A stretch of DNA of 64,000 bases from Trueperaceae bacterium (GCA_034520945.1 JAXHNB010000006.1:832001-896000), one strand, 5' to 3'; shown: positions 31,856-37,711, counted from the stretch's first letter. Notes: a model not told the origin generated them from the letters alone. Numbers and translations are program-made.

Positions 31856-33171
31856 CGGCTTCGGCGCCGGGTCCCGCCACCCGCTGGTTGTTCGCGCGGC
31901 AACGCTTCGGGATCACGCCTGGCCTGGACGGTGTTCGGGCGCTGCTCGCGCGGTTGGGGAACCCCGAGGCACGCTTCGACGCCGTCCTGGTCGCTGGCAC
32001 CAACGGCAAGGGCGCGACCACCGCGGCGTTGGCGGAGATGCTGCGGCAGGCGGGCGTCCGCACCGGACGGTTCGTCAGCCCCCACCTGAGCGAGCCCGGC
32101 GAGCGTGTGGTGGTGGACGGCGTGCCCATGTCCCCCGCCGCGTTCGAAGCGGCTGCGGCTCGGATTCGACCGCACGTGGAGGCCACCGGGGCGACGTTCT
32201 TCGAGGCGCTGACGGCCATGGCCTGCCAGGCGTTCGCCCGGGCGGGATGCCGGACGGTCGTGGCGGAGGTCGGCATGGGCGGGCGTTGGGATGCCACCAA
32301 CGCGCTGGAACCGGTGGCGTCCCTGATCACCTCGGTGGGGCTGGACCACACCGAACGCTTGGGCGACACCGTGGCGGAGGTGGCCGGAGAGAAGGCGGGG
32401 ATCCTGCGCAGCGGCCGTCCCGCCTGGACGTCCGCACGGGGCGACGCGCTGGACGCCCTCCGCGCCCGGGCGCGGAGCCTGGGCGCACCGCTCCGCAGCC
32501 TTCACGACCCCGAGGTGGAGGTGTCGATTCGGCTTCGCGGCTGGGAGGGATTGGAGGTCGACGTCGCCCAGGGCGGGGAGGGGGCGACCCTTCGCAGCCC
32601 CTGGCTGGGGCGGCACCAGGGCGAGAATCTTGCGCTGGCCGCGCTCGGGGCCCGCGAGCTGGGGGTCGGCTGGGACGCCGTCCGCGCCGGCGCGGCGTCG
32701 GCCACGTGGCCCGGCCGGCTCGAACGGATCGCGCCGGCCCGACCCGACCTGCCGGCCGTTCGCCTCCTGCTGGACGGGGCGCACAATCCCGACGCCGCCC
32801 GCGCCCTGGCGAGCACGCTGGAGGCGCTGTCGTCGAGGCCGGAGCTGGTGTTCGGCGCGTCCAGCGACAAGGACGTCCGCGGGGTCCTAGGGGCCCTGGC
32901 ACCCCACGTCACGCAGCTGCATGCGACCCGGGCGCGCCTCAGCCCGCGCGCCCTGTCGGCGGCGGAGGTCGCGGCCGAGGCGGCCGCATGTGGGATTCCC
33001 GTGGCCGGGCACTACCAGGATCCCCGCGAGGCGGTGACGGCAGCGATGTGGGCGGCGCACGGCGCTGGGTCCGCCGCGGGCGTGTTGGTGGCCGGAAGCC
33101 TGTACTTGGTGGGCGAGGTGCGCCCCTGGCTTCTCGGCGAAGCGTCGCCCGCGTTCGAGCGGTGGCAGTAG
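31852..33171 (+). CDS. folC: Folylpolyglutamate/dihydrofolate synthase
   Basis: GTNGKG, SPHL, TFFE, EVGMGGRWDATN, DH..LG, WPGRLE, DGAHNP, GSLYLVG. Confidence 0.95.
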   Translation: MTASAPGPATRWLFARQRFGITPGLDGVRALLARLGNPEARFDAVLVAGTNGKGATTAALAEMLRQAGVRTGRFVSPHLSEPGERVVVDGVPMSPAAFEAAAARIRPHVEATGATFFEALTAMACQAFARAGCRTVVAEVGMGGRWDATNALEPVASLITSVGLDHTERLGDTVAEVAGEKAGILRSGRPAWTSARGDALDALRARARSLGAPLRSLHDPEVEVSIRLRGWEGLEVDVAQGGEGATLRSPWLGRHQGENLALAALGARELGVGWDAVRAGAASATWPGRLERIAPARPDLPAVRLLLDGAHNPDAARALASTLEALSSRPELVFGASSDKDVRGVLGALAPHVTQLHATRARLSPRALSAAEVAAEAAACGIPVAGHYQDPREAVTAAMWAAHGAGSAAGVLVAGSLYLVGEVRPWLLGEASPAFERWQ

Positions 33172-33185
33172 GCCGGCCCGCGCCG

Positions 33186-33821
33186 TCAGCGCGGCGTGTC
33201 GTCGGGCGCCGTTGCCCCTGGGGGTGGACGGCGGGCCGCCAGCAGGTGCTTCACGATCGAGATCGACGCGCCGGCGGCGGCCGCCGTGGCGACGGCGAAC
33301 GCCCGGTCGGGCACCCAGCCGGCGTTCGTCACCGCGGTGCCGGTCACGAAGGGAAACGCGAGCAGCGCGATCACCGCGGCGAGCGTGGCGCGTCGCAACA
33401 GCAGCACGAGCGCGACCAGGACCGCCAGTCCATAGCCGGCGGCGAGGGGCGCGACGGGCAGGAACATCCCGAACAGCGTCGCCAGCGCCTTGCCGCCGCG
33501 GAGTCCCGCGAAGCACGACCAGGCGTGCCCCAGGACCGCGCCGGTCCCGGCCGCCAGCGACGTCGGCAGCGGATCGACCGTCCCGGCCCACTGCGCCATG
33601 GCGCTCCCGAGGAGGACGGCGCCGGCCCCCTTGCCGGCGTCGCCGATCAGGACCAGCACGCCGGCGCCCCACCCCAGGTTGCGCGCGACGTTCATCGCGC
33701 CCATGTTGCCCGAGCCGAGCTGAAACACGTCACGCCCCCGTCCCCGCGCGATCCAGGCGGCGACCGGGATGCTGCCGATCAGGTACCCCGCGGCGAGCGC
33801 GGCGACCGCGTCCACGATCAC
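33186..33821 (-). CDS. plsY: Glycerol-3-phosphate acyltransferase PlsY
   Basis: YLIGSIP, GSGNMGAMN..R, D..KG, GH, GGKALAT, KH. Confidence 0.9.
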   Translation of the reverse strand: MIVDAVAALAAGYLIGSIPVAAWIARGRGRDVFQLGSGNMGAMNVARNLGWGAGVLVLIGDAGKGAGAVLLGSAMAQWAGTVDPLPTSLAAGTGAVLGHAWSCFAGLRGGKALATLFGMFLPVAPLAAGYGLAVLVALVLLLRRATLAAVIALLAFPFVTGTAVTNAGWVPDRAFAVATAAAAGASISIVKHLLAARRPPPGATAPDDTPR

Positions 33822-34576
33822 GCGTTCTCCGGGGCGTCGCGTTCGGCGTCGGCGCCCGCCTCGGCCCGCATGGCGGTGACGGCCTGCAGGCTGCGGAGCT
33901 GCTCGACGTGCCAGCCCACGTAGCGGGCCAGCAGGCGCCACTGCAACGCGCGGTCGACGAGGGGCTCGTTCAGGACGTCACGTGCGCGACCCGTGGCCAG
34001 GCGTCGCAGCCCGTAGGCCCCTTGGGGCGACAGGGCGATGCCCTCGCCGTCCCGCGTGAGCGTGCCGCCCGCGACATCGAAGCGTGCCGGCCCCTCGGCG
34101 CTTCCCTCCGGACCGGCGGCCACGGCGGGCCCGAGGCCCGCGACGCGCAGCATCATCCAAGCGTGCACCAGGGCGACGCGTTCGGGATCTCCGTCGGCGT
34201 TCAGACCGCGAAGGCCGCTGGCCAGCCAGGCGTGCAGCGGTTCGCCCAGGTGCACCTCCACGGCCAGCCGGTCGGCGAGCTCGGCCAGCGCGTGGGCGTA
34301 CGGGTACACGTCGGGGTCGGACAGGCGCGGCAAAGCGCCGTTCAAACGCACCTGCGTCACCACGGCCAGGTCGTCGTCTCGCCTGCGGTAGGCCTGCACG
34401 GTGACGTCGTGGAACAGCGACAGCCGACCGGGATTGCCGCCGGGCAGACGGCCCTTCCGGACGATGGCCCGCCACTTCCCGTCCTCGGAGAGCAAGGTGA
34501 CCACCACGTCGCCGGAGGGAAGGGGCGTGCGCCTGAGGACGATGCCGTCGCGCACGCGGTAGCGGCTGCTGGCCAT
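33818..34576 (-). CDS. recO: DNA repair protein RecO
   Basis: N-terminal OB-like GIVLRR...GD...LLS..GK; Deinococcota-like GRLSLFH.V.VQ.Y; C-terminal LRS. Confidence 0.85.
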   Translation of the reverse strand: MASSRYRVRDGIVLRRTPLPSGDVVVTLLSEDGKWRAIVRKGRLPGGNPGRLSLFHDVTVQAYRRRDDDLAVVTQVRLNGALPRLSDPDVYPYAHALAELADRLAVEVHLGEPLHAWLASGLRGLNADGDPERVALVHAWMMLRVAGLGPAVAAGPEGSAEGPARFDVAGGTLTRDGEGIALSPQGAYGLRRLATGRARDVLNEPLVDRALQWRLLARYVGWHVEQLRSLQAVTAMRAEAGADAERDAPENA

Positions 34577-34658: not shown

Positions 34659-37658
34659 TCAGCCCTCGGCCTGGCGTCGCGCCTTGCCGTGGGCCATGCG
34701 GAGCTTGAACATGCCTCGCTTGTGCCGCGTCGCCACCTCGTCCTCTTGGAGGCCGAGCTCGTTCGCGACCGCCTGGGTGGACGCCGCGCCGTGCCCGTTC
34801 ATGCCCTCCTTGCGCACGACCACCTCCCGGTCCGGCGCGTCGAGCAGGTCGAGGTGTTCGGCCAGCTGCTGGGGGGAGGCCTTGGGCGTGGCGGCCTTCT
34901 TGGTGCCCGTCGCCTTCTTGCCGCTCGCCTTCTTGCCGCTCGCCTTCTTGCCCGCGGTCTTGGTGCCGGCCGCCTTCTTGCCGGCCGCCTTCTTGCTGGA
35001 CGCGGTGGTGCTGCCGCGGTCTCGGCTCGAGCCCTGTGCCTTGGCCGTCCCCTTGCCGCGCGAGGCGCCGCGTCCCTTGCCGCTGGCCTTGCGTGCTTCG
35101 CGGGCGGCCAGCAGTTCGAGCGCCGTCTCCAACGTCATCTCGTCCGGCTTCTGGTCCTTGCGCAACGAGGCGTTGGTCTTGCCGTGCTTGACGTACGGGC
35201 CGAAGCGACCGTCGTGGAGCTCGACGGGTGCGTCGCTCTCGGGGTGCGTGCCCAGCGTGGCGAGCGGCTCGCGGCGTCCGCGGGACCGTTTGGCGGCCAG
35301 CAGCTGCGCGGCGCGTTCGGGCTCGATCTCGAGCACGTCGTCGCCCTCTTCGAGCGAGGCGTAGGTGCGTTCGTGCCGGACGTACGGCCCGTAGCGGCCG
35401 ATGCCGGCATGGATCGCCTTTCCGGTCTCCGGGTGGGCGCCGACGGGGCGAGGGAGGTCCAGCAGGCGGCGCGCGAGGGACGCGTCCACCTCGGCGGGCT
35501 CGACGCCCGGTGGCAGCGACACGCGTTTGGGCTTGCCCTCCTGATCACTGGGACCCAACTGCAGGTAGGGGCCGTACGGCCCGTTCTTGAGGAGCATCAC
35601 GGGGCCGTCCTCATGGGTGCCGAGCTCCACGTCCCCCTGTCGTTCCCGCGCGATCAGCTCGTCGAGCTGCTCCTTGGTCACGTCCGCAGGGGGCCATTCG
35701 GCGGGCACGGAGGTGGTGATGCGCTCGCCGTCCACGTGCGCCTCGACGTACGGGCCGTATCGTCCTACGCGAATCACGTACGGGTCCCAGCGCGCCGCGC
35801 GAATGGTGCTGATCTCCTTGGGATCGATGCCGTCGATGCCACGCGCCACCCGTGCTTCGATGCCCTCGTCGCCGCCGTAGAAGCCGCGCAGGTAGGGGAT
35901 CGCCTCGAGCGTGCCGGCGGCGATCTCGTCGAGCTTGGCCTCCATCTCGGCGGTGAACTCGGTGTCCACGAGCTGCGCGAACTGCTCCTCGAGCAGGTTG
36001 TTGGTCGCGAACGCCGTGAAGGTCGGCACCAACTGCGAACCGTTCTTGCGCACGTACCCCCGGCGCACGATGGTGTCGATGATGCTGGCGTAGGTGCTCG
36101 GACGGCCGATCCCTTCCTGCTCCAGCGTCTTGACGAGCGACGCCTCGGTGAACCTGGCGGGTGGACGGGTCTCGTGCCCACTGGGGGTCAGCGCCTCCGC
36201 CACCAGCGCCTGGCGTTCCTGCAGCGGGGGGAGCGGCTGGTCGCGGTCGTCGAGCGCGGCGTCGGGGTCGTCGCTGCCCTCCACGTAGGCGCGGAAGAAG
36301 CCCGGGAAGAGCACCGTCCGCCCGCTGGCGCGTAGCGACAGGGTGCGGCCTTCCGCCTCCGTCTCGATACGCGCCGTGACGAACTTCAGTTTCGCCTCGG
36401 CCATCTGGGTGGCGACCGTGCGCTTCCAGATCAGGTCGTACAGAGCGCGTTCGCGGCCCCTCAAGGCATGCTCGTCGGCGGTCCGCATCGTGGTGCCCGC
36501 GGGGCGGATGGCCTCGTGCGCTTCCTGGGTCCCGCGCGACTTGCTGCGGTACTGCCGCGGGCGGGTGGACAGGTAGTCGCTGCCGTAGAGCGCCTCGATG
36601 CGTGCCCGGCTGGCGTGGATCGCCTCGCCCGAGAGGTGCGTCGAGTCGGTTCGCATGTAGGTGATCAGCCCGCGCTCGTACAGCCCCTGTGCGACGCTCA
36701 TGGTGTCGCGCGCCGACAGGCCCAGCTTGCGGCTGGACTCCTGTTGAAGGGTCGACGTCGTGAACGGGGCCGAAGGGTGCCGCGTCTGCTCCTTCTCCTC
36801 CACGCTGCGGACCGTGAACGGCGCCTCAGCTGCCGCGTCCGCCAACCGCGTGGCCGTGTCGCCGCCGAGCAGGACGAGGTCGCGGCCCTCCTCCAGCCCG
36901 GGTGCCAGCCTGCCGGTGTCGGGATCGAAGTCCTTCCCGGCCGCCAGGCGGATCCCGTCCAGGTGCGTGAGGGTCGCGCCGAACGGCCGGGCGGCCCCCT
37001 CGGCGCCGCGCAGTGTCGCGTCGATACCCCAGTACGACGCCGGCACGAACGCCAGGCGCTCCTTCTCCCGCTGCACCAGGATGCGCACCGCCACCGACTG
37101 AACGCGCCCCGCCGAAAGGCGGGGGGCGATCTTGCGCCACAGCAGCGGGCTGATGGTGTAGCCCACCAGCCGGTCCAACAGGCGGCGGGTCTCCTGCGCC
37201 TCGACCAGGCTGCGGTCGATGTCGCGCGTGTCCGCCAGCGCGTTCTCGATCGCCTCCTCGGTGATCTCGTGGAACACCATGCGCTTCACGGGCACGTCGG
37301 GCTTCAGGAGCTCCAGCAGGTGCCACCCGATCGATTCGCCCTCGCGGTCCTCGTCCGTCGCGATGACCAACTCGTCCACGTTGCGGAGGGCCTTCTTGAG
37401 GTCGCGCACCACGTCCGGTTTCGTGACCACGTACAACGGCTCGAAGTCGTTGTCGACGCGCATGCCCAGACGGGCCCAGCTCTCGCCACGGTACCGGTCG
37501 GGGATGTCGTTCGCCGAGGCGGGCAGGTCGCGCACGTGGCCCATGCTGGCCATCACCTCGTACCTGCTGGGCAGGTAGCGGCGGATGGTCCGAGCTTTGG
37601 TGGGCGACTCCACGATGACGAGGCTTCGTCCCGAAGATGCGTTGGTCGTAGGTGCCAT
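34659..37658 (-). CDS. topA: DNA topoisomerase I with Topo_C repeats, Lys-rich linker and C-terminal HTH-like domain
   Basis: IVESPTKA, ATDEDREGE, SAGRVQS, ITYMRTDS, AHEAIRP, GRPSTY, four G(R/P)(Y/F)GPY repeats; ATG at 37658 after a GGAAGG SD. Confidence 0.96.
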   Translation of the reverse strand: MAPTTNASSGRSLVIVESPTKARTIRRYLPSRYEVMASMGHVRDLPASANDIPDRYRGESWARLGMRVDNDFEPLYVVTKPDVVRDLKKALRNVDELVIATDEDREGESIGWHLLELLKPDVPVKRMVFHEITEEAIENALADTRDIDRSLVEAQETRRLLDRLVGYTISPLLWRKIAPRLSAGRVQSVAVRILVQREKERLAFVPASYWGIDATLRGAEGAARPFGATLTHLDGIRLAAGKDFDPDTGRLAPGLEEGRDLVLLGGDTATRLADAAAEAPFTVRSVEEKEQTRHPSAPFTTSTLQQESSRKLGLSARDTMSVAQGLYERGLITYMRTDSTHLSGEAIHASRARIEALYGSDYLSTRPRQYRSKSRGTQEAHEAIRPAGTTMRTADEHALRGRERALYDLIWKRTVATQMAEAKLKFVTARIETEAEGRTLSLRASGRTVLFPGFFRAYVEGSDDPDAALDDRDQPLPPLQERQALVAEALTPSGHETRPPARFTEASLVKTLEQEGIGRPSTYASIIDTIVRRGYVRKNGSQLVPTFTAFATNNLLEEQFAQLVDTEFTAEMEAKLDEIAAGTLEAIPYLRGFYGGDEGIEARVARGIDGIDPKEISTIRAARWDPYVIRVGRYGPYVEAHVDGERITTSVPAEWPPADVTKEQLDELIARERQGDVELGTHEDGPVMLLKNGPYGPYLQLGPSDQEGKPKRVSLPPGVEPAEVDASLARRLLDLPRPVGAHPETGKAIHAGIGRYGPYVRHERTYASLEEGDDVLEIEPERAAQLLAAKRSRGRREPLATLGTHPESDAPVELHDGRFGPYVKHGKTNASLRKDQKPDEMTLETALELLAAREARKASGKGRGASRGKGTAKAQGSSRDRGSTTASSKKAAGKKAAGTKTAGKKASGKKASGKKATGTKKAATPKASPQQLAEHLDLLDAPDREVVVRKEGMNGHGAASTQAVANELGLQEDEVATRHKRGMFKLRMAHGKARRQAEG
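34887..34994 (-). repeat. 15-nt tandem repeats encoding (K/T)K(A/T)(A/S/T)G pentapeptides in the TopA tail
   Basis: Recurrent gccttcttgccg units on +; protein KKAAG KKAAG TKTAG KKASG KKASG KKATG TKKAA. Confidence 0.85.
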
Positions 37659-37683
37659 GCGGTCCCTTCCGGTTCGCGCCGCC

Positions 37684-37711
37684 ATTATATGGACGCCCGG
37701 CCTGAAGTCAA
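37684..37711 (-). promoter_or_regulatory. Promoter of topA
   Basis: TTGACT, 16-nt spacer, TATAAT, then a GC-rich discriminator GGCGGC. Confidence 0.75.

Follow-up and report, generated by a model that had tools for sequence, protein, structure and literature searches.

We report that DNA topoisomerase I (TopA) of a Trueperaceae bacterium (GCA_034520945.1) ends in a domain that is homologous to region 4 of the sigma-70 factors (sigma4). The gene lies on the minus strand of a 64,000-nucleotide stretch of DNA (JAXHNB010000006.1:832001-896000), which was analysed as a whole and is called the window here, and positions are counted from its first letter. An earlier reading, made from the sequence alone, had described a TopA with GPY-type repeats, a linker containing KKAAG/KKASG repeats, and a C-terminal tail of 73 amino acids (aa), and the translated open reading frame (ORF) reproduces the strings quoted there exactly, with base-accurate positions. 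The tail is almost certainly a sigma4-derived module carried on a flexible basic tether, ancestral to the TopAs of the Deinococcota, in which promoter reading has been lost. Judging from its sequence, we suggest that it most likely serves to dock TopA on RNA polymerase at the place that sigma4 occupies, the tip of the beta flap, and we put the probability of this at roughly 0.4.

Homology of the TopA tail to sigma-70 region 4

The relationship was examined with an alignment of 80 tails (hereafter A2), made up of the tail in the window and the tails from 79 related TopA genes. When used alone, the window tail falls below the Pfam cut-off for Sigma70_r4 (PF04545; E 0.12, 12.2-12.4 bits, cut-off 24.1), and in NCBIfam it matches eight sigma models, all below threshold and all at the C-terminal end of the model, the best at 6.2e-5. 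The family of tails does match Sigma70_r4: 62 of the 80 individual tails reach E<=1 and 20 reach E<=1e-4, with a best value of 9e-9. Searched against the sequences in the PDB, the A2 profile found RpoS (1.3e-6) and RpoH (2.1e-5), followed by SigA, HrdB, and RpoD; sigma factors account for 52 of the 60 matches listed, and every match falls on region 4. The profile also aligns with region 4 of the genome's own RpoD over 66 columns (hhalign, E 5.5e-5, probability 66%), and when run over Deinococcota genomes it recovers region 4 of real sigma factors, in frames of 400-500 aa.

The predicted structure leads to the same assignment. AlphaFold2, given A2, produced a confident 76-aa model (pLDDT 91.5, pTM 0.77) with helices at 6-10, 18-28, 38-45, and 49-75, and this model has the sigma4 fold. 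When it was compared with the PDB by Foldseek, all 41 matches listed were sigma4 chains or complexes that contain sigma, the best being 6ido_A, a chimera of sigmaS region 4 and the flap tip (TM 0.71, 1.6 A over 60 columns, 33% identity). None of these PDB matches reached E<=0.001, the best value being 4.6e-3, as is usual for a domain of about 60 residues; we accepted the sigma4 assignment because every listed match was sigma4 and the sequence profile agrees. The neighbours of the tail in the ESM Atlas are sigma-factor-like helix-turn-helix clusters. The resemblance to sigma70 region 4 that had been noticed by eye is thus confirmed both by profile (A2 against the PDB, Pfam, and hhalign) and by fold. 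The tail is a true homologue of sigma-70 region 4, and the homology is established beyond chance.

The match covers the helices of region 4.1 besides the helix-turn-helix. Two other families were considered and rejected: an AsnC-type helix-turn-helix (window tail, E 0.017) and a NirdL-like one both remain below their cut-offs and cover just the 18-25-residue helix-turn-helix core. Across the family, GerE and HTH_AsnC reach E<=1 in 6 and 8 of the 80 tails, respectively, versus 62 for Sigma70_r4, which alone remains at E<=1e-4.

A phmmer search with the tail against 1.8 billion representatives returned 35 matches, and the 25 that were examined consist of TopA C-terminal pieces, proteins with tandem sigma4-like units, and two other proteins. 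The tandem proteins (P0014, P0016, P0018, P0022, P0026, P0035, and P0036) carry from two to seven or more units, which in P0014 and P0018 stand behind a sigma-factor-like N-terminus, and P0041 is a 260-aa protein other than TopA with one such unit at its C-terminus. Separately, the genome encodes two long sigma factors (G000:C1:136236-136394 and G000:C6:252368-252526, in frames of 515 and 498 aa) that show seven differences in their last 71 residues, counted from the RE of region 4.1, and just two in the stretch TLEEVG...RERIRQIENKALRKLKYHESRTR.

Loss of the residues that read the -35 element

When the tail is aligned by hhalign with RpoD of the same genome, its recognition helix starts with QEDEVAT, facing TRERIRQ of RpoD. 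The residues of the RpoD motif are counterparts of R584, E585, R586, R588, and Q589 of Escherichia coli sigma70, which we take to be those that read the -35 element. The earlier claim that the -35 recognition helix has been replaced by an acidic segment is upheld by this register and by the charge of the whole family. Columns 49-51 of A2 are acidic in 57%, 80%, and 82% of the tails, columns 50 and 51 hold no basic residue in any of them, and 79 of the 80 tails carry a net negative charge where the recognition helix starts. The basic and polar residues that characterise a functional sigma4 at this place are not found in the tail.

The charge is distributed unevenly along the domain. Its body (columns 6-55) is net negative in all 80 tails, with a median of -6 versus -3 in the genome's RpoD, and the last helix (columns 56-72) carries +5 to +7, again in all 80. 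In the window tail this helix has an acidic start (EDEV, facing RERI of RpoD) and continues into the basic motif HKRGMFKLRMAHGKARR, with a net charge of +7. The tails conserve helix 1 (KAT..DLEPFL..L, with A4, L9, F12, L13, and L16), the hydrophobic positions of helix 2, and the last-helix motif KRG(M/L)FKLRMA(Y/F)G(K/R)AR. The invariance of KR[GA][LM]FKLR[MT] within A2 arises partly by construction, as the locus scan used that same pattern; nevertheless, each of the seven loci that a plain similarity search recovered from other genomes (L002-L008) carries the motif in a slightly looser form, and it recurs with small changes in Thermus-like TopAs and those of genus g21.

These features bear on whether the tail might still read DNA as sigma4 does at the -35 element and so target TopA to promoter-like sites. 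The sigma4 fold with its helix-turn-helix is kept in the Trueperaceae, as such a role would demand, but the Arg, Arg, and Gln in TRERIRQ of RpoD are replaced by Glu/Asp and Ala, the recognition segment is negatively charged almost throughout the family, and the helix-turn-helix is truncated in Thermus-like TopAs. We regard promoter targeting as extremely improbable. The acidic -35-reading positions, together with the shortened middle of the Thermus-like forms, make canonical helix-turn-helix reading of DNA very unlikely, and from its sequence the DNA-reading function of the tail looks lost.

Distribution and natural variants in the Deinococcota

Conservation in related TopAs had been set in advance as a test of the sequence-only reading, and the segment proved to be conserved by a single-tail query, a pattern scan, and a profile survey. 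With the window tail alone as query, 27 of 41 related genomes were matched. In the pattern scan, the closest relatives that carry a name were metagenome-assembled genomes of Trueperaceae. The survey profile, itself built from A2, matched 181 of 201 Deinococcota genomes at E<=1e-3, a count that includes some matches to sigma factors. Strong matches in frames of TopA size were found in 36 of 40 Trueperaceae genomes, the family of the window, and in all genomes of family f3 (9/9) and of genera g21 (18/18), g34 (4/4), and g35 (3/3). All 38 of the longer proteins found in a search with A2 are TopAs.

The context of the module varies. In Trueperaceae TopAs the tail follows Toprim_C (GPY) repeats; in those of Calidithermus, Oceanithermus, Marinithermus, and others labelled as Thermaceae it follows zinc-ribbon C-terminal domains, as precomputed PF01396 matches confirm. 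The survival of the module through a switch from one kind of C-terminal domain to another speaks for a separate function that is under selection. Linker and domain together occur in two or three tandem copies within one frame in 10 of the 18 g21 genomes (for example, L147 in G161 and L148 in G199) and in two Trueperaceae records, one with three copies (G014:C365) and one with two (L030). Only weak profile matches were obtained in two large genera, the Thermus-like g18 (24/30) and the Deinococcus-like g16 (77/83). In Thermus-like TopAs, helix 1 and the last helix (e.g., KRALFKLRMQKGRAKK) are retained and the middle of the domain, where helix 3 lies, is shorter by some 16-18 residues, and the Deinococcus-like TopAs retain the full length of the tail and have lost the KR..FKLRM motif. 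Finally, four Trueperaceae TopAs (in G015, G185, G018, and G088; L153-L156) end in a lysine-rich stretch that carries no sigma4-like domain. The tandem, shortened, diverged, and tail-less forms are natural variants that can be compared with one another.

The loss of the tail from four Trueperaceae genomes, its shortening in Thermus-like TopAs, and its divergence in Deinococcus-like TopAs can be counted in favour of the view that it is an evolutionary leftover with no present function. We consider this view highly improbable, however, as the tail is in frame and conserved in most or all of the sampled genomes of the Trueperaceae, f3, and g21, has been retained across the swap of C-terminal domain type, has been duplicated repeatedly, and is folded confidently by AlphaFold2.

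A possible docking site on the RNA polymerase flap

With its DNA-reading residues gone, a sigma4 domain is most economically read as a tether to the flap. There is precedent for lineage-specific TopA C-termini that bind RNA polymerase: the 14-kDa C-terminal domain of E. coli TopoI is reported to do so, with hypernegative supercoiling and R-loops resulting when the two are uncoupled (PMC9352719), and the C-terminal domains of Mycobacterium smegmatis TopA are reported to associate with RNA polymerase (PMC10969213). For E. coli sigma32, the residues described from cryo-EM as touching the flap-tip helix are A221, L225, W244, L245, L278, and E283 (PMC10216364). In the HMMER alignment of the A2 profile with 8hkc_E, these map to columns 5, 9, 29, 30, 63, and 68 of the tail. 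Four of the six columns are conserved, L9, L63, and G68 being invariant and G29 nearly so, and column 30, in the tails that have it (62/80), is occupied by Met, Leu, Val, or Ala. On the other side of the putative interface, the flap-tip helix of RpoB in this genome, PEERLLRSIFGEKA, is canonical and does not vary among 26 Deinococcota sequences. The conserved contact columns and the canonical flap tip are compatible with docking at the flap, as far as sequences can indicate.

The invariance of the flap-tip helix in all 26 aligned sequences makes an analysis of covariation between tail and flap impossible. A prediction of the complex, pairing A2 with an alignment of the RpoB flap (A3; 160 aa around PEERLLRSIFGEKA), gave scores of 0.02 and 0.25, where the mark is 0.32; it was run without controls and counts neither for nor against binding.

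Almost certainly, a sigma4 domain was captured early in the Deinococcota lineage, attached through a lysine-rich linker of about 66 residues, and relieved of promoter reading. If the flap is the docking site, the domain would bind at the usual place of sigma4, the flap-tip helix of the beta subunit, next to the upstream DNA and the channel through which RNA leaves, a seat that is freed when sigma departs after promoter escape. A catalytic body held at the flap could have within its reach the negatively supercoiled DNA immediately behind the polymerase, and TopA docked in this way would relax that DNA and suppress R-loops, as E. coli TopoI does by means of an unrelated C-terminal domain. A further step, which we put forward still more tentatively, is that at promoter escape the face of the polymerase with RNA exit and upstream DNA might pass from sigma to TopA by means of a decommissioned region 4, which would compete with sigma and NusA for this site.

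Several points weigh against docking at the flap. The residues specific to the TopA tail, K57, R58, F61, K62, R64, M65, and G68, are predicted to lie opposite the flap-contact residue L63 on a helical wheel, a projection at 100 degrees per residue applied to the AlphaFold2 helix 49-75 and made without coordinates, so that the strongest selection may act on a surface that does not face the flap. Column 30, the counterpart of L245 in sigma32, is either absent or polar in the tails of Thermaceae and Deinococcus-like TopAs, and the conservation of L9, G29, and L63 could reflect the fold alone. On an elongating polymerase the flap tip is described as a site of NusA as well (PMC4357713), and TopA would thus face a competitor. 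The four tail-less Trueperaceae TopAs and the loss of the motif from Deinococcus-like tails imply that the function is dispensable or replaceable. Moreover, two or three tandem copies are more typical of nucleic-acid-binding modules than of a domain that docks at one seat, and the tandem copies and the +7 last helix fit nucleic-acid binding equally well.

These last observations suggest that the tail might instead be a non-specific nucleic-acid anchor, in which the basic last helix KRGMFKLRMAYGKARK and the lysine-rich linker would bind the DNA backbone, single-stranded DNA, or nascent RNA. Such an anchor would raise the affinity or processivity of TopA, as is reported for the lysine repeats of actinobacterial TopA, which confer high processivity (PMC7398561). 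The positive charge of the last helix in every tail speaks for this, as do the duplication and triplication of linker and domain in tandem, the binding of nucleic acid by other TopA C-terminal modules, and an invariant Phe and Met that are flanked by Lys/Arg and resemble a surface for stacking and phosphate contact, their exposure being deduced from the helical wheel. It is harder to reconcile with the rest of the domain, which is acidic in all 80 tails and at the start of the recognition helix, and with the helix-turn-helix that is not intact in Thermus-like tails; nor would a role as a simple basic peptide call for conservation of a folded sigma4 scaffold and its helix 1. We regard an anchor of this kind as somewhat less likely than docking at the flap, and as the main rival to it.

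The stripe of residues peculiar to the TopA tail (K57, R58, F61, K62, R64, and M65) is equivalent to the basic face that helix 4 of sigma presents to activators, and so raises the alternative that the tail docks on a protein elsewhere: on another surface of RNA polymerase, on a regulator that recognises sigma helix 4, on a repair protein, or on the body of TopA itself as a form of autoregulation. The N-terminal domain of MotA, for example, is described as contacting basic residues of helix S4 through an acidic and hydrophobic surface, and the same source describes contacts of sigma region 4 with the C-terminal region of beta (PMC6755090). A repair protein is brought to mind by recO, which lies 3' of topA and shares its strand, an arrangement that recurs in 36 of 72 related loci. 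Gene adjacency by itself is weak evidence, however; no candidate partner was identified, and nothing in the data indicates autoinhibition. Docking at such a site seems to us rather unlikely, though it is a serious alternative to the flap.

Domain layout of TopA and genomic context

The features of topA are collected in Table 1. The product scores 746.3 bits against TIGR01051 (topA_bact; equivalog cut-off 456.4), which identifies it as a bacterial DNA topoisomerase I, and its database entry (P0003) is a form of 999 aa that begins at Met10. The GxxGPY motifs of the C-terminal repeats are at residues 644, 702/705, 766, and 829. With cysteine-free Toprim_C repeats followed by a lysine-rich stretch, the C-terminal region is of the actinobacterial type. 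Pfam and NCBIfam detect no sigma region 2 or 3 in the TopA polypeptide, which as a whole protein is not a sigma factor.

Table 1. Features of the topA gene and its product in the window.
Feature	Position	Strand	Basis
topA ORF, 1008 aa, including TGA stop at 34659-34661	34659..37685	-	TIGR01051 topA_bact match
Toprim domain, residues 22-141	37263..37622	-	Pfam PF01751, E 5.5e-19
Type IA topoisomerase core (Topoisom_bac), residues 156-595	35901..37220	-	Pfam PF01131, E 9.1e-111
Four cysteine-free C-terminal repeats (Toprim_C_rpt)	35079..35798	-	Pfam PF13368, 4 stretches, E 7.2e-59
Lys/Ala/Gly/Ser/Thr-rich linker, 66 aa, residues 870-935, with KKAAG/KKASG repeats inside	34881..35078	-	Composition
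Sigma-70 region-4-like domain, 73 aa, residues 936-1008	34662..34880	-	Profiles, AlphaFold2 model, Foldseek, hhalign
Region-4.1-like part: helix 1 (938-942; family consensus DLEPFL) and helix 2 (950-960)	34806..34874	-	AlphaFold2, conservation
Helix 3, first of the helix-turn-helix, residues 970-977	34755..34778	-	AlphaFold2
Long last helix, residues 981-1007	34665..34745	-	AlphaFold2, charge, conservation

The linker contains 17 Lys, 14 Ala, and 12 Gly among its 66 residues, with a single acidic residue, and gives weak histone-H1-like matches in NCBIfam. We presume it to be a flexible basic tether that is probably disordered. Its DNA includes a tandem array of a 15-bp unit (34910-34996, 5.8 copies).

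The recO gene (33818-34576, minus strand; Pfam RecO_N and RecO_C) starts 82 nt past the topA stop. The count of related loci given above refers to the 72 with at least 900 nt of downstream sequence, of which 36 have a RecO-like gene on the same strand within 600 nt of the topA stop. The neighbours beyond, at 33186-33941 (minus strand) and about 31924-33168 (plus strand), encode a PlsY-type glycerol-3-phosphate acyltransferase and a Mur-ligase/FolC-like protein, and have no evident link to topA.

Novelty and implications

A full-text search of the literature, with subscription journals mostly outside its scope and supplements aside, turned up no paper on a TopA with a sigma-like domain, and the word 'sigma' is absent from a 2022 survey of TopA C-terminal motifs (PMC9369019) and from a 2024 review (PMC10969213). 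Of the 38 TopA relatives, however, seven already carry a public precomputed match to Sigma70_r4 (PF04545), all of them of the zinc-ribbon type. The view that this architecture had gone undescribed therefore holds for the papers found and does not extend to database annotation. Enzyme and domain are each familiar; their combination is conserved, was described in none of the papers found, and suggests a mechanism that can be tested.

The phylum-wide presence of a sigma4-like module on TopA offers a concrete hypothesis for coupling, as both the fold and its seat on the polymerase are known. To our knowledge, the way in which TopA is retained beside the transcribing polymerase is understood in outline just for E. 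coli and mycobacteria, which use unrelated C-terminal modules. If the flap tether is correct, it would represent a third, independently evolved mode of coupling TopA to transcription, and the first case of a sigma domain recruited as the tether of an enzyme. The tail itself shows that a domain of sigma factors can find a use in another protein once it has lost the ability to read DNA. The hypothesis can be tested in Thermus, Meiothermus, Truepera, and Deinococcus, which are culturable and harmless and whose RNA polymerases are workhorses of structural biology.

Comparison with known systems

The closest relative of the tail is sigma-70 region 4 itself. The two share a profile match, a four-helix fold with a helix-turn-helix, and a register that begins in the 4.1 helix and continues to the KLR at the end of helix 4, and with sigma32 in particular the tail shares hydrophobic residues at most of the positions that contact the flap tip. 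Unlike region 4, the tail sits at the end of a topoisomerase with no regions 2 or 3 beside it, is acidic at the -35-reading residues, and has a more acidic body than the genome's RpoD, from which it further differs in its own last-helix motif, with Phe in place of Arg.

Among topoisomerases, the 14-kDa zinc-ribbon domain of E. coli TopoI is comparable as a C-terminal TopA module, and its place on the polymerase is like that which we propose for the tail. The folds are unrelated, however, zinc ribbons in one and a sigma4 helical bundle in the other, and the E. coli interaction has been demonstrated, whereas that of the tail is deduced. The actinobacterial and mycobacterial TopAs resemble the window TopA in having PF13368 repeats and then a lysine-rich stretch. 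The four tail-less Trueperaceae TopAs end in just this way with no extra domain, whereas in the window TopA the lysine-rich stretch is followed by a further domain, which is folded and sigma4-like.

In function, the proposed docking has an analogue in AsiA of phage T4, a protein other than sigma that takes over the contacts of sigma4 with the polymerase. AsiA is described as having no sequence or structural similarity to sigma4 beyond a helix-turn-helix, whereas the TopA tail is a true homologue; and AsiA remodels initiation, unlike the tail, which we propose would act as the tether of an enzyme.

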